This document shows, piece after piece, positions 16,604 to 23,552 of a stretch of DNA of 64,000 bases. Every line of letters begins with the position of its first letter. Within the stretch, counting starts at the first letter, position 1. Under the pieces are notes generated by a model. It did no database searches, was not told the origin of the DNA, and saw only the letters and a program-made list of their open reading frames with translations. The stretch is from Escherichia coli (GTDB lineage: Bacteria > Pseudomonadota > Gammaproteobacteria > Enterobacterales > Enterobacteriaceae). Position numbers and translations under genes: made by a program. The stretch lies in the NCBI RefSeq assembly GCF_041886205.1, contig NZ_CP169029.1, one strand, 5' to 3'.

Positions 16604-17986
16604 TCAACCTGCCACACTCCCCCACACCAGTTGCCCTTTATGGAACGTTGCGGTTCTCGGCGAGATACGCGCCACCGCCTCGGCGGAACAGGAGGCGTCC
16701 ACCAGCACAAAGCTGGCGTCATCCTGCGCTTTTGGCCATACACGCTCGCCTTTTTCATTCAGCGGCAATACATCGCCAGTGGCTAAAAACAGCGAACGGG
16801 AGAGGTTCTGTTCGTTAGGACGAATATAGAGCTGCGCGTAGAGATTGGCTTTTTCCAGCATGCCGCCCAGACCATAAGGCGACCAGTGGTCGATAACGCT
16901 GTCAGTGCCAGTCATCACTTTTACGCCTTTGTCGTGCAGCTGTTTGAGCGGCATATGCAGCGTGCCAATCGGCACCGTCGAGGCGATAGAAATTTGCTGC
17001 GCCGCCATCCGGTGCGCCAGCGCATCGACCTGTTGTTCGTTGAGCGTTGCCAGCGCAAAGGCGTGGCTGATGGTCAGCTTACCTTTCAGTTGTGGCGTTT
17101 TCTCCACTGTTTCAACCATATAATTGATGGCCGCCACGCCCGCCGGAGTGGTTTCGTGCAGGTGAATATCGACGCCTTTGTCGTAGTCCAGCGCAATCTG
17201 AAACATGGTGTCGAGGGATTTTTCCATCGCGCCATCGACACTGGTCGGGTCCAGACCGCCGACGTAATGCGCGCCCGCCTGCATTGCTTCACGCATTAAG
17301 GGTTCCGATTTCGACAGCAGCAAACCGTGCTGCGGGAAGGCGACGATTTCACACTCGAAGCCCGCCTGACGCCGCGCCAGCACCGCCTGCAAATTTTGCA
17401 GATTTTTCAGGCCGGAAACCGGTTCGATATTGCAGTGGCTGCGGGCAATGGTGGTGCCTTTCGACTGCAATAGTTCGATCAGTTTTTCCGCCCGCTCCTG
17501 CGTGTACGGTTGTAACTCCGGCAGCATTTTCTGCTCGAGTTTGATCATGTCCTGGATGGTGGTGCCTGCCGGGCGATTGAGCGAGCGCCACGGCCCGCCG
17601 TAGAAGGTTTTGTCGAGATGAATATGCATGTCGCGAGTGGTGGGCAGCATCAGCTTACCGCCAGCATCATAGTGCGGTAGCGTGGCGTCCGGATGCTGCT
17701 TGTTCTCGCGCAGAGCAACAATTTTGCCGCTCTGAATCTCTACGGTCTGGTGCGCCGTGCGGGTCTGTACCGCCACACCGTTTTCGTAATCAAATCCGGT
17801 TTCCAGCAGCACGTTGTCGAGATAGTAGTGCGGGTCAGTGATTTTCATGGTGTTATTTGCCTCGCAGTGGGTTGTGCCAGAGACTGCCGCATGGGCGAGC
17901 GGCACAGAGGTACCAAACAGCGCGGCGGCAGTGACCATCTTACCGCTCTGGCTCAGAAACTCACGGCGGCTATTGTTTTCTTTCAT
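16604..17986 (-). CDS. yahJ: amidohydrolase-family deaminase with twin-arginine (Tat) signal
   Basis: 460-aa ORF; N-terminal SRREFLS...AHA Tat-type signal; metal-dependent hydrolase-like. Confidence 0.88.
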   Translation of the reverse strand: MKENNSRREFLSQSGKMVTAAALFGTSVPLAHAAVSGTTHCEANNTMKITDPHYYLDNVLLETGFDYENGVAVQTRTAHQTVEIQSGKIVALRENKQHPDATLPHYDAGGKLMLPTTRDMHIHLDKTFYGGPWRSLNRPAGTTIQDMIKLEQKMLPELQPYTQERAEKLIELLQSKGTTIARSHCNIEPVSGLKNLQNLQAVLARRQAGFECEIVAFPQHGLLLSKSEPLMREAMQAGAHYVGGLDPTSVDGAMEKSLDTMFQIALDYDKGVDIHLHETTPAGVAAINYMVETVEKTPQLKGKLTISHAFALATLNEQQVDALAHRMAAQQISIASTVPIGTLHMPLKQLHDKGVKVMTGTDSVIDHWSPYGLGGMLEKANLYAQLYIRPNEQNLSRSLFLATGDVLPLNEKGERVWPKAQDDASFVLVDASCSAEAVARISPRTATFHKGQLVWGSVAG

Positions 17987-17995
17987 CTTACGTCC

Positions 17996-18946
17996 TTACG
18001 TTTTAATAATATGAGTGCCCGTTTCGCCACGCAGCGCCGCTGGCAGGCATTCCGGCGTGGTGATAATCACTTCTTTACCGCCCTGTTCCAGGAACGTCAG
18101 GCTGGCGATGATTTTTGGCAACATGCTGCCGGGCGGGAAATGTCCTTCCTGCATATAGCGAGTCATGGTGGCAATATCCACCCGATCCAGCGCCTGCTGC
18201 TCGAGTTTGCCAAAGTGAATACACACTTTTTCGACGCCGGTGGTGATCACCAGAATGTCGGCGTGAATTTCACGGGCCAGCAGCGCGGTAGAGAGATCTT
18301 TGTCGATAACCGCGTCCACGCTTTGGTAATCCCCCGCTTCAGTACGCACTACCGGAATTCCGCCGCCGCCCGCGCCAATTACGACAAAACCTTGTTGGAT
18401 CAGCGCCTTAATGGCAGGTGCCTCGACAATACGTTTCGGTTCCGGCGAGGCGACCACGCGGCGATAGCCCCGCCCGGCATCTTCAACAAAACACCAGTCA
18501 GGGTTTGCCTTTTGTAGTTCGTCACGCTGACTTTCACTAAAGAATGCGCCGATGGGCTTGGTGGGATGAGCAAAACCCGGATCGTTTATATCCACTTCCA
18601 CCTGAGTCACCACGGTGACGGCTTTTTTCTCGCCGTGACGCGCCAGTCGGTTGTTCAGCGCCTGTTGGATCAGATAGCCAATGCCGCCTTGCGTATCCGC
18701 TACACAGTTCGCCAGCGGCGTTAATGGCAGCCCTTCGCGCTCGTGGGCAATCTCCGCACGGCGTAAATCCAGCCCGACCTGCGGCCCGTTGCCGTGGGTC
18801 AGCACAATGTCGTAATCGGAAGCCAGCATTTCCAGCAGCGTATCGGCGACGGCTTTCACCGCCTCCGCCTGATGCTCAATCGACTGGCTGGCGTTATTTT
18901 TGATAATGCTGTTGCCACCAATGGCAACGACCACAAGCTCTTTCAT
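17996..18946 (-). CDS. yahI: carbamate kinase-like protein
   Basis: 316-aa ORF MKELVVVAIGGNSII...; amino-acid kinase fold. Confidence 0.9.
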   Translation of the reverse strand: MKELVVVAIGGNSIIKNNASQSIEHQAEAVKAVADTLLEMLASDYDIVLTHGNGPQVGLDLRRAEIAHEREGLPLTPLANCVADTQGGIGYLIQQALNNRLARHGEKKAVTVVTQVEVDINDPGFAHPTKPIGAFFSESQRDELQKANPDWCFVEDAGRGYRRVVASPEPKRIVEAPAIKALIQQGFVVIGAGGGGIPVVRTEAGDYQSVDAVIDKDLSTALLAREIHADILVITTGVEKVCIHFGKLEQQALDRVDIATMTRYMQEGHFPPGSMLPKIIASLTFLEQGGKEVIITTPECLPAALRGETGTHIIKT

Positions 18947-18996
18947 GTTGTTATGTCCGCTACAGAGGGTGATGAGGTTATGACCAACGCCAGACT

Positions 18997-22054: not shown

Positions 22055-22907
22055 AATTCCCTCCGTAGGTTTGGCTCAGCGCACAACCATCGGCCATGCC
22101 ATACAGCATGTCGCAGCCGGAACTGGAGCCAATATGTTTAATTTTTTCTATTGCCTGAGTTGAATTCCCAGGGACGCCATAAATAATATCGTGAATAAAA
22201 TGATGAATATTTTCCCGGCAGCGTTGTTGTAATGCGGCTTCCAGCGTTATGGCACTTAATAATGTGGTATTATTTCTGCCGCGTTGCAGACCGCGATAAA
22301 ATTCCTCTTTGTATTTTTCCGCCGGATGCCCGGAAATAAATAAAATAAGTACCAGTCCGGTCAGATAATCATCGGCTGATGGCGTAAGGCCAATCCCTAA
22401 CCCCATCATACTGGCGACCGCTGCGGCGATATTTTGTTTTTCGTTTACTGCCTGAATAACTGCCCGTCGTTTAATATGTAGTTCTTTATTTAACGCCTGA
22501 TAAAACGGATTATCGCCGCGATAATTAAACAGGGTTTCATTTTCCCCCAGGTGCTGATGAATAATGTCGTGCCACTGTTGCCAGGCGATAAGGTGAAAAT
22601 TCACAGCGGTCATTTGCAAGGTTGGGGACAGCCAACGCCGACAACGACTCATCTCTATATGAAGATGTTGACCAACCGTAATACCTTGATCGTCAAACTG
22701 AACCTTATCACCATGCCGGAACAGATCATCAAAGTGAGTGAGTGCCAACCGACAACTGTTTGGCGCATTGTCGTACTCTTCACAAAGCAGCGTCAGCAAC
22801 TGCTGGCGAGCCGGGAGTGCGATATTTACCGCTCTGGCAAAGACCTGTTCAACCTGTCCTTGCCCCCGCTGCGCCAGAAAATCCGCATCCGCAGTTAGCG
22901 CCCACAC
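22044..22907 (-). CDS. yahE: DUF2877-family protein
   Basis: 287-aa ORF; synteny. Confidence 0.85.
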   Translation of the reverse strand: MWALTADADFLAQRGQGQVEQVFARAVNIALPARQQLLTLLCEEYDNAPNSCRLALTHFDDLFRHGDKVQFDDQGITVGQHLHIEMSRCRRWLSPTLQMTAVNFHLIAWQQWHDIIHQHLGENETLFNYRGDNPFYQALNKELHIKRRAVIQAVNEKQNIAAAVASMMGLGIGLTPSADDYLTGLVLILFISGHPAEKYKEEFYRGLQRGRNNTTLLSAITLEAALQQRCRENIHHFIHDIIYGVPGNSTQAIEKIKHIGSSSGCDMLYGMADGCALSQTYGGNYVS

Positions 22908-22946
22908 ACACCGTCTTTCTGGTGTGTTGATAGCAAGCCTCCCGGT

Positions 22947-23552
22947 TTATGCACCTGCGGCAATCAGTAACTGCGCAATCTCTTCAAAGCCCCGTTCCCG
23001 CGCCAGTTCCAGTGGCGTTTTGCCATATTTATCGGTCAGATGCGGGCTGGCACCGTGTTCCAGCAATAACTGCACAATCGCCTGCTGTTTAATACCACCA
23101 TCATTAAGCACAATCGCTTCCAGTAGCGGCGTCCAGCCTACATGGTTGGTCTGGTTAACGTTAATCTCCGTATGCGCCAAAAGCTCTTTTACAATACTTA
23201 AATGGCCTTTTTCACAGGCAGGCGTCAGGCCGACACCGCCAAAACGGGTTACGCAATTAAGATCGGGTTTAGCCGGTAAAATAATTCGTAGTAGCGTTAA
23301 ATCATCGTTCAGACAGCTAATTAAAAAAGGATTTAAACAGGTATGATCTTGCTTATTAATATCCGCTCCGGCATCAATTAATGCCTGAACGCAAGCATAT
23401 TGCTGATATAAACTTGCCAGCGTAATTGCCGTTTTCCCCTGACGATCGCAGGTATTAATATCGACACCCAGCGCAAGGCAGGTTTTTACTTTATCGATAT
23501 CACCCTGTTGTGCAGCCAATAAATAGTCGGCAGGTAGATTTTTTATACTCAT
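22947..23552 (-). CDS. yahD: ankyrin-repeat protein
   Basis: 201-aa ORF with repeated ankyrin-like G-TPLH/LL.AGA motifs. Confidence 0.88.
   Translation of the reverse strand: MSIKNLPADYLLAAQQGDIDKVKTCLALGVDINTCDRQGKTAITLASLYQQYACVQALIDAGADINKQDHTCLNPFLISCLNDDLTLLRIILPAKPDLNCVTRFGGVGLTPACEKGHLSIVKELLAHTEINVNQTNHVGWTPLLEAIVLNDGGIKQQAIVQLLLEHGASPHLTDKYGKTPLELARERGFEEIAQLLIAAGA

Follow-up and report, generated by a model that had tools for sequence, protein, structure and literature searches.

What is the yah gene cluster of Escherichia coli for? The yah genes are among the densest uncharacterised gene blocks left in E. coli K-12, and a 2024 review of the y-ome still counted yahC, yahE, yahG, yahH, yahI and yahJ as uncharacterised (PMC11551758). 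We analysed the cluster as it occurs in a 64,000-nucleotide stretch of E. coli contig NZ_CP169029.1, hereafter the window. Six intact open reading frames (ORFs), yahD, yahE, yahF, yahG, yahI and yahJ, run co-directionally on the minus strand and fill positions 16604–23552 exactly. On balance, we favour the view that yah is a self-contained, regulated catabolic module that follows the logic of the deiminase pathways and uses an AllFGH-type carbamoyltransferase. To judge from sequence, it is a distinct and widely distributed subtype of the AllFGHK system, set apart by an ankyrin partner, a transporter of its own, a deaminase that is optional and a displaced F/G gene boundary. The genes, and the features that lie within and between them, are as follows.

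16604–17986, minus strand: yahJ, a predicted 460-residue amidohydrolase with a twin-arginine translocation (Tat) signal, of the AtzC/CodA deaminase branch (NCBIfam PRK06846, 709 bits; alignments with PDB 6nbo, AtzC and CodA).
17888–17986, minus strand: codons of the YahJ twin-arginine signal peptide, residues 1–33, MKENNSRREFLSQSGKMVTAAALFGTSVPLAHA (sequence; RRxFL of the orthologues; PMC7549933).
17996–18946, minus strand: yahI, a 316-residue carbamate kinase family protein, paralogue of AllK (PRK12352, 640 bits).
18947–19088, no strand: yahG–yahI intergenic gap with two repetitive extragenic palindromic (REP) units, at 18996–19025 and 19043–19078 (inverted repeats).
19089–20507, minus strand: yahG, a 472-residue DUF1116/AllG-family subunit (45% identity to AllG; PDB 3clq, E = 9e-196).
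20507–22054, minus strand: yahF, a 515-residue FdrA/AllF-family subunit with a SucD-like fold (NCBIfam PRK06091, 491 bits).
22044–22907, minus strand: yahE, a 287-residue DUF2877/AllH-family subunit (25% identity to AllH; Pfam AllH on orthologues).
22947–23552, minus strand: yahD, a 201-residue cytoplasmic ankyrin-repeat protein (ankyrin matches).
23810–24307, plus strand: yahC, a divergent gene for a 165-residue six-helix membrane protein (Pfam DUF1097).
24399–25331, plus strand: yahB, a divergent gene for a 310-residue regulator of the LysR type that is paralogous to AllS and PunR (sub-cutoff NCBIfam scores of 267 bits for AllS and 238 bits for PunR).

A first-pass annotation, made from the sequence of the window, had described the six co-directional genes, and the ORFs and the lengths of the K-12 counterparts bear it out. 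It had also placed a divergent LysR gene and a small membrane protein gene upstream; these are yahB and yahC. Its domain calls hold, namely ankyrin, DUF2877/AllH, FdrA/SucD-like, DUF1116/AllG, carbamate kinase and a PRK06846-type amidohydrolase. The region is 95–100% identical throughout to the annotated yah locus in E. coli genomes, and the window proteins match their K-12 counterparts in length and at 96–100% identity. The ratio of non-synonymous to synonymous substitution rates (dN/dS, or ω) lies between 0.02 and 0.34 for all eight genes, with the tightest constraint on yahG and the loosest on yahE, which evolves fastest within the cluster (ω 0.14–0.34). All eight are under purifying selection and the yah genes are not decaying paralogues.

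Paralogy to the allantoin locus, proposed in the same annotation, was checked by direct blastp of the K-12 allantoin locus proteins against the Yah proteins. It was borne out for five protein pairs, at 25–45% identity: YahF with AllF (39%, E = 2e-102), YahG with AllG (45%, E = 2e-119), YahE with AllH (25%, E = 1e-11), YahI with AllK (38%, E = 6e-55) and YahB with AllS (39%, E = 9e-73). The homologues of AllF, AllG and AllH are neighbours, their orthologues match the Pfam families HMA_AllF_N, AllG and AllH, and the current RefSeq names of YahE and YahG place them in the AllH and AllG families. Thus, the yah genes were already known, the paralogy is real, and membership of the AllFGH class holds at the sequence level. 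For the allantoin-locus genes, the link to oxamate carbamoyltransferase chemistry has since gained a biochemical footing. AllFGH, purified in 2024, is an oxamic transcarbamylase that interconverts oxalurate plus phosphate and oxamate plus carbamoyl phosphate, and AllK is a catabolic carbamate kinase (PMC11326118, PMC9843812). AllS and ArcA act directly as activators of the allF operon (PMC12535856). The yah genes go unmentioned in these papers on AllFGH, AllK and AllS (PMC11326118, PMC9843812, PMC12535856). Given the paralogy, and since the activities of AllFGH and AllK are proven, a parallel carbamoyl catabolic route for an as yet unnamed substrate would be the natural reading of the yah cluster, much as the first-pass annotation had it. 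By analogy, the chemistry to be expected is ureide plus phosphate to amide plus carbamoyl phosphate, and then ATP.

The subunits themselves are consistent with this. When YahF was aligned to the succinyl-CoA synthetase α subunit (PDB 2yv2), the GHAGA phospho-histidine loop fell in a gap; FdrA/AllF (PDB 3dmy) is alike in this. Hence, the old annotation as an acyl-CoA synthetase is disfavoured. Residues 12–53 of YahG align with residues 513–554 of AllF, the C-terminal tail of that protein (E = 2e-6). Residues 1–55 of YahG correspond to 20345–20507 in the window, and the counterpart at the C-terminus of AllF is encoded at 17217–17348 of the locus we designate L002. A homologous peptide thus lies on opposite sides of the F/G boundary in the two systems, so the stop and start have shifted by ~45 residues, as expected of two chains that pack together. 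From residue 58 onwards YahG matches an uncharacterised protein of known structure (PDB 3clq, E = 9e-196). Full-length YahD matches the structural genomics entries 5d66 (E = 2e-40) and 3hra (E = 4e-30). We take 3clq and 3hra to come from Enterococcus faecalis; that organism would then be expected to carry a yah-type cluster. For YahI, the score against the curated carbamate kinase subfamily PRK12352 was 640 bits, well past the cutoff of 266, and that against the arcC equivalog TIGR00746 was 342 bits, just below the cutoff of 358. By these models YahI is a carbamate kinase family member and not an ArcC equivalog.

The comparative anatomy of the locus was assessed in 80 loci found by a scan with YahG, taking one genome per species; all have at least 86% identity to YahG. 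The conserved gene set was derived by two methods, tblastn with all Yah proteins and unsupervised clustering of ORFs, and 71 of the loci were complete. The conserved unit is a regulator gene, yahB, beside yahD-(yahE)-yahF-yahG-[permease of ~515 residues]-yahI-yahJ. Solely yahB, yahC, yahD, yahE, yahF, yahG, yahI, yahJ and the permease are conserved across the loci. Since nothing else is conserved between genera, the module is self-contained. The yahD gene occurs in 77 of the 80 loci, and in clusters from Brevibacillus, Janthinobacterium and Pasteurella; yahJ accompanies the cluster in 75. The window has all three of the F, G and H-type subunits, but 21 of the 71 complete loci lack yahE. The Enterobacter/Leclercia/Lelliottia clade, one Serratia and Aeromonas have no yahE, so that the gene must have been lost independently at least three times. 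That several lineages can dispense with this AllH-like subunit was missed by the first-pass annotation.

Clusters from outside Enterobacterales retain genes for the ankyrin protein, AllH, AllF and AllG homologues, a transporter and a carbamate kinase, in three further arrangements. In Brevibacillus, a PucR regulator gene stands beside genes for an ankyrin protein, AllH, AllF and AllG homologues, an NCS1 permease resembling allantoin permeases, a carbamate kinase, a deaminase of the cytidine deaminase fold and an AGZA-like permease. The Janthinobacterium cluster encodes an ankyrin protein, AllH, AllF and AllG homologues, a permease, a carbamate kinase and a LysR regulator, without a deaminase. 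Pasteurella testudinis has the full set, with a YahJ-like amidohydrolase that carries an N-terminal RRxFL motif. Stand-alone orthologues of YahJ, with 78–83% identity, occur in Shewanella and Xenorhabdus. The Brevibacillus deaminase, at the position of YahJ, is a non-orthologous replacement, and this points to a deaminase role. Thus, the core consists of the ankyrin protein, the F and G subunits (with or without an H-type subunit), a transporter and a carbamate kinase; the deaminase is a frequent but replaceable accessory. That YahJ is an accessory and not a member of the core module also escaped the first-pass annotation. YahD is a constant partner of the yah-type AllFGH-like genes. A role for YahD as a Tat chaperone or hitch-hiker of YahJ was considered and rejected, since YahD is found with YahFG even where a cluster has no YahJ.

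Set against AllFGHK itself, the yah system shares homologous F, G and H subunits, F subunits without the phospho-histidine loop, a carbamate kinase and a LysR-type activator. Several differences stand beside these likenesses. The yah genes run E(H)-F-G...I(K) and those of the all locus F-G-H-K, identity is only 25–45%, and the F/G gene boundary is moved by ~45 residues. The yah type adds the constant ankyrin partner YahD, a predicted Tat-exported deaminase and a dedicated transporter, and its H-type subunit is dispensable in several lineages. The upstream allantoin enzymes are absent and the regulator box differs.

The transporter is the part that E. coli lacks. In most other genera, the gene for the ~515-residue membrane protein lies between yahG and yahI, exactly where E. 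coli has its REP-filled gap. Searches of Pfam, NCBIfam and PDB with the permease sequence, both singly and as a 21-sequence profile, gave no match; some sources label it as a xanthine permease or AGZA family protein. An AlphaFold2 model (predicted local distance difference test, pLDDT, 82) has a 7+7 transmembrane-helix NAT/SulP fold with two short central strands, at 84–86 and 302–304, and Foldseek matched it with probability 1.0 to SVCT1, UraA, BicA and SLC26. By this predicted model the cluster permease has the NAT/SulP fold; its absence from E. coli was likewise missed by the first-pass annotation. Among the 71 complete loci, 55 have the permease without yahC and 16 have yahC without the permease, with no locus having both and none having neither. 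In a tree of YahF, YahG, YahI and YahJ, the yahC type forms a single clade (Escherichia, Pseudocitrobacter, Kluyvera, Citrobacter amalonaticus and Raoultella/Klebsiella). Hence, there was one evolutionary swap and not many. The 16 against 55 exclusivity was accordingly discounted as strong evidence and counted as one event. When the yahG–yahI gaps of the window, of K-12 and of 15 further loci without the permease were searched by tblastn and blastn-short for relics of its gene, matches stayed at chance level, so loss of the permease is argued from position and phylogeny.

An AlphaFold2 model of YahC (pLDDT 96) has the transmembrane domains of ALMT1 and ALMT9 as its nearest structural neighbours. 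At one further locus (L094), a DUF1097 gene directly follows a YahG-like gene. Four other DUF1097 neighbourhoods (L095–L098) are short contigs with unrelated genes, such as those for a Rieske protein and a sigma-54 activator, and are neutral with respect to a link between DUF1097 and the module.

YahJ, the frequent accessory, is most similar to PDB 6nbo (E = 4e-44), AtzC (E = 9e-29) and cytosine deaminase entries (E from ~1e-15 to 5e-19), over ~350 residues. Its active site was assigned by mapping the published residues of AtzC and CodA through HMMER alignments. The metal ligands are H121, H123, H275 and D362 (the HxH pair, a His and an Asp), the catalytic His is H308, the substrate-binding Gln is Q219 and the stacking Trp is W368. 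The mononuclear metal site, catalytic His, Gln and Trp are all present, as in subtype III amidohydrolases. The remainder of the pocket is a hybrid. K126 and H277 are AtzC-like, E278 is CodA-like, and S363 stands in place of Asn304 in AtzC and Asp314 in CodA. Against three NCBIfam cytosine deaminase models, YahJ scored 98, 80 and 65 bits, far below the cutoffs of 438, 483 and 403. By these alignments YahJ is a catalytically complete deaminase-type amidohydrolase, and neither a CodA nor an AtzC equivalog. It also differs from both enzymes in having a Tat signal and a linker of ~45 residues.

The Tat signal is well preserved. The twin-arginine sequence SRREFL, pointed out by the first-pass annotation, occupies residues 6–11 and is followed by a hydrophobic stretch and an AHA|A cleavage site at 31–34. 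YahJ orthologues keep the RRxFL motif, the hydrophobic region and the AxA sequence, from Escherichia to Pasteurella, Aeromonas and Shewanella. Stand-alone orthologues also have RRxFL; in one of the orthologues examined, RH replaces RR. Published work lists YahJ as a predicted Tat substrate of unassigned function (PMC7549933, PMC3027627). The exported deaminase foreseen in the first-pass annotation is thus supported as a prediction, by the conserved motif and hydrophobic region and by that listing. In a mouse model of extraintestinal pathogenic E. coli (ExPEC), a yahJ deletion had a competitive index of 0.70 (PMC7549933).

The region upstream of yahD is strikingly conserved in an alignment of 16 genera, from Escherichia to Aeromonas, and contains four elements.

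23656–23677, minus strand: perfect T-N11-A inverted repeat of the LysR type, ATTGTTGAA-N5-TTCAACAA (yahD upstream alignment, 16 genera).
23593–23601, minus strand: extended −10-like sequence TGcTATTCT, ~40 nt before the yahD ATG, without a −35 element.
23688–23701, minus strand: second dyad, tGC-N6-GCACA, upstream of the LysR box and present in all 16 genera.
yahD upstream region: conserved GAAT...TTTAAGCGG block (alignment of 16 genera).

The T-N11-A box is the single such site in the window, where none is expected by chance, and is probably the YahB binding site. The locus has the usual layout for a LysR-type regulator, with yahB divergent and the T-N11-A dyad in the predicted yahD promoter. 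Taken together, this anatomy is that expected of a promoter dependent on an activator, for which YahB is the simplest candidate. The second dyad could be another YahB site or a site for a different regulator. At the all locus, a search for a copy of the yahD box found none similar; cross-regulation by AllS is therefore not expected.

The first-pass annotation called the genes a tightly coupled operon, and this stands in part. From yahD to yahJ the junctions are +39, −11, −1, +142 and +9 nt. Four of them are tight; the 142-nt yahG–yahI gap is not. Because that gap is filled with REP sequence, the cluster is best described as two tight blocks, yahDEFG and yahIJ. Scans for sigma-70 consensus promoters and intrinsic terminators across 16300–24500 gave nothing above shuffled expectation, which is uninformative on co-transcription, and no minus-strand site within the yah cluster.

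The two palindromes in the gap have the form of a REP or bacterial interspersed mosaic element, and the segment matches a median of 31 places per E. coli genome. It is the sole polymorphic part of the locus. In K-12 it is 421 nt long, with four tandem REP units, and is annotated as the dubious gene "yahH" (PMC11551758). The 3069 of 5426 genomes in which the locus was covered to at least 80% might have been taken for presence/absence variation. This was rejected, since the 66%-coverage class, which includes K-12, is merely split at the longer REP array. Almost all E. coli genomes have the yah operon. Directly ahead of yahI, a stretch of ~45 nt (...CATCACCCTCTGTAGCGGACATAACAAC-ATG; window 18947–18995) is conserved among permease-less genera, as seen in the gaps of L013, L015 and L021, and the rest of the gap is not. 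It may serve yahIJ as a translation signal or as an internal promoter.

Gene content, homology, an intact active site, a signal peptide, constraint, a conserved promoter and the comparative pattern are direct observations; from them we infer activities, localisation, order of steps and substrate. YahB, on sensing an effector, would activate the yahD promoter through the T-N11-A box. YahJ would fold with its metal in the cytoplasm and be exported by Tat to the periplasm. There it would strip ammonia from a planar amino or imino compound, for example an amino-heterocycle or an acylguanidine, to leave a ureide. The ureide would be taken up, in most genera by the permease and in E. coli possibly by YahC, perhaps acting as a channel, or by an unlinked carrier. 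By analogy with AllFGH, YahF and YahG, with YahE and YahD, would then phosphorolyse the N-carbamoyl bond to give carbamoyl phosphate and the de-carbamoylated amide. Finally, YahI is predicted to convert carbamoyl phosphate and ADP to ATP, ammonia and carbon dioxide. Oxalurate itself is unlikely to be the substrate.

This sequence of steps resembles, by analogy, that of the arginine and agmatine deiminase pathways, in which removal of ammonia gives a ureido compound and then carbamoyl phosphate and ATP, with transport of substrate and product alongside. Those pathways have four parts: a deiminase, a catabolic transcarbamylase, a carbamate kinase and an antiporter. The resemblance is a functional analogy and not family membership. 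The predicted yah transcarbamylase does not have the ornithine or aspartate transcarbamylase (OTC/ATC) fold; of the genes conserved in the ORF clusters of the 80 loci, none of those scanned matched an OTC/ATC-type family. YahJ belongs to the amidohydrolase superfamily and is predicted to be periplasmic, whereas the deiminases are cytoplasmic guanidino-modifying enzymes, and the E. coli yah cluster has no permease. Two cassettes with other front-end hydrolases offer a further comparison (PMC3349570, PMC12928451, PMC12625717). The tkt1 island of avian pathogenic E. coli has the same FdrA/DUF1116/DUF2877 and carbamate kinase back end and a nucleobase-type permease, but its front end is an isochorismatase-type hydrolase with an NCS1 permease. 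The biuH-linked allFGHK genes of nitrifiers are the same back-end cassette, with BiuH in place of YahJ. An ankyrin protein has been reported for neither. These cassettes support a modular back end leading from ureide to carbamoyl phosphate to ATP.

One feature of the cluster weighs against the proposed scheme. No gene in it encodes a ring-opening enzyme, so a heterocyclic product of YahJ would lack a directly exposed terminal carbamoyl group. Conversion of a linear acylguanidine to an acylurea, or an unstable ring product, would fit better; alternatively, YahJ acts late or independently. If independent, YahJ would scavenge nitrogen as a periplasmic deaminase and have no more than the operon in common with YahDEFG and YahI, which would use a ureide imported as such. 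The stand-alone orthologues in Shewanella and Xenorhabdus, the Janthinobacterium and plasmid-borne E. coli clusters without YahJ, and the REP gap between yahDEFG and yahIJ would all fit. However, yahJ starts 9 nt after yahI and stays with the cluster in 75 of 80 loci, and Brevibacillus has a different deaminase at the same place; we regard independence as doubtful. If YahJ instead acted last, an amide made by YahDEFG would be exported and deamidated in the periplasm, with the transporter exchanging substrate for product as in deiminase pathways. E. coli does excrete oxamate from the paralogous pathway (PMC11326118, PMC12535856), and the AtzC site binds malonate, a planar dicarboxylate, through Lys65 (PMC4577212), which YahJ keeps as K126. 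In its model, YahC resembles the transmembrane domain of organic-anion channels. Yet YahJ retains the stacking Trp and the heterocycle-type Gln. The Brevibacillus substitute, moreover, has the cytidine deaminase fold, whose known members deaminate ring amidines rather than simple amides. A terminal position for YahJ is, in our estimation, unlikely.

Two further explanations concern the carbamoyltransferase. Every catalytic subunit is homologous to one of AllFGHK, and RefSeq names YahE and YahG accordingly, so yah could be a redundant second oxalurate/oxamate carbamoyltransferase made of isozymes. We consider this quite improbable. Identity is only 25–45%, the cluster includes a regulator gene of its own, a LysR box like that of yahD is absent from the all locus, and an ankyrin protein, a deaminase and a transporter are added; moreover, an fdrA (allF) mutant is reported to be unable to convert oxalurate even though it has yah (PMC11326118). 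Less probable again, and to our minds barely credible, is that YahF and YahG form an NDP-forming acyl-CoA synthetase, or that the set runs biosynthetically and carbamoylates an amide. SucD-like CoA-binding and ligase domains are present, and transcarbamylase reactions are reversible (PMC11326118). Conversely, the phospho-histidine loop is missing, and a catabolic-type carbamate kinase, a permease and a deaminase lie alongside.

We therefore keep to a catabolic module that proceeds from deamination through a ureide to carbamoyl phosphate. A bolder version can be put forward only tentatively. Here, yah would be an unrecognised pathway of substrate-level phosphorylation for an abundant amino-heterocycle or acylguanidine of host or diet. 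The carbamoyltransferase fed by Tat-exported YahJ would be an AllFGH-class enzyme of four components, an ankyrin protein included, and DUF1097 proteins such as YahC would be a new family of small channels for organic solutes, able to replace a NAT/SulP permease. Possible substrates include a creatinine-, isocytosine- or triazine-like compound, or a fragment of an oxidised purine.

The synonymous distance (dS) to Pseudocitrobacter faecalis is 0.23–0.34 for yahF, yahG, yahI and yahJ, as against 1.3–2.4 for yahB, yahC, yahD and yahE. Between the window and K-12 it is 0.11–0.19 for yahF to yahJ and 0–0.05 for yahB to yahE. The GC content is 45–47% in yahD and yahE and 55–59% in yahF to yahJ. These contrasts mark the locus as a mosaic whose breakpoint lies close to the junction of yahE and yahF (16604–22054 versus 22044–25331). 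The sequences suggest a recent exchange of the yahFGIJ segment between genera. An extra yah-like cluster, composed of a LysR gene and genes for an ankyrin protein, AllH, AllF and AllG homologues, a permease and a carbamate kinase but without yahJ, was found in 142 of 5426 complete E. coli genomes. It occupies 152 places, of which 106 are plasmid-borne. In one case (L091, E. coli contig MKWX01000034.1), it adjoins the aerobactin genes shiF-iucABCD.

The surroundings of the locus in the window differ from those in K-12. Next to yahB, where K-12 and the closest-matching genome have pdeL, the window keeps a 50-nt 3′ remnant of that gene at 25373–25422. An autotransporter-like ORF of 666 residues (25390–27390, minus strand) abuts yahB and is followed by betT (27897–29930). 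On the other side, between yahJ and yahK, a segment of ~5 kb (about 11200–16335) is not in K-12. It encodes the following, and also two permeases, judged from a matching annotated genome.

15895–16335: ASCH-domain protein.
14658–15644: binding protein of a sugar/autoinducer-2-type ABC transporter.
13125–14624: ATPase.

Elsewhere in the window, Rfam identified four repeat-derived naRNA4 (CssrE) elements on the minus strand (51544–51615, 51639–51716, 52381–52458 and 55104–55181) and one tRNA (37462–37534).

Nearly all of the 80 yah loci are from Enterobacterales, the urinary-tract genera Proteus and Providencia among them, and deletion of yahJ causes a slight loss of ExPEC fitness in mice (PMC7549933). 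Identification of the AllFGH class in 2024 makes yah function directly testable. Since E. coli has no cluster permease, a permease-bearing relative may be better suited to phenotyping. Were the yah substrate found, it would add a nitrogen pathway that yields ATP and ammonia to the metabolic map of E. coli, and would give roles to DUF1116, DUF2877 and DUF1097 proteins and to a bacterial ankyrin protein.

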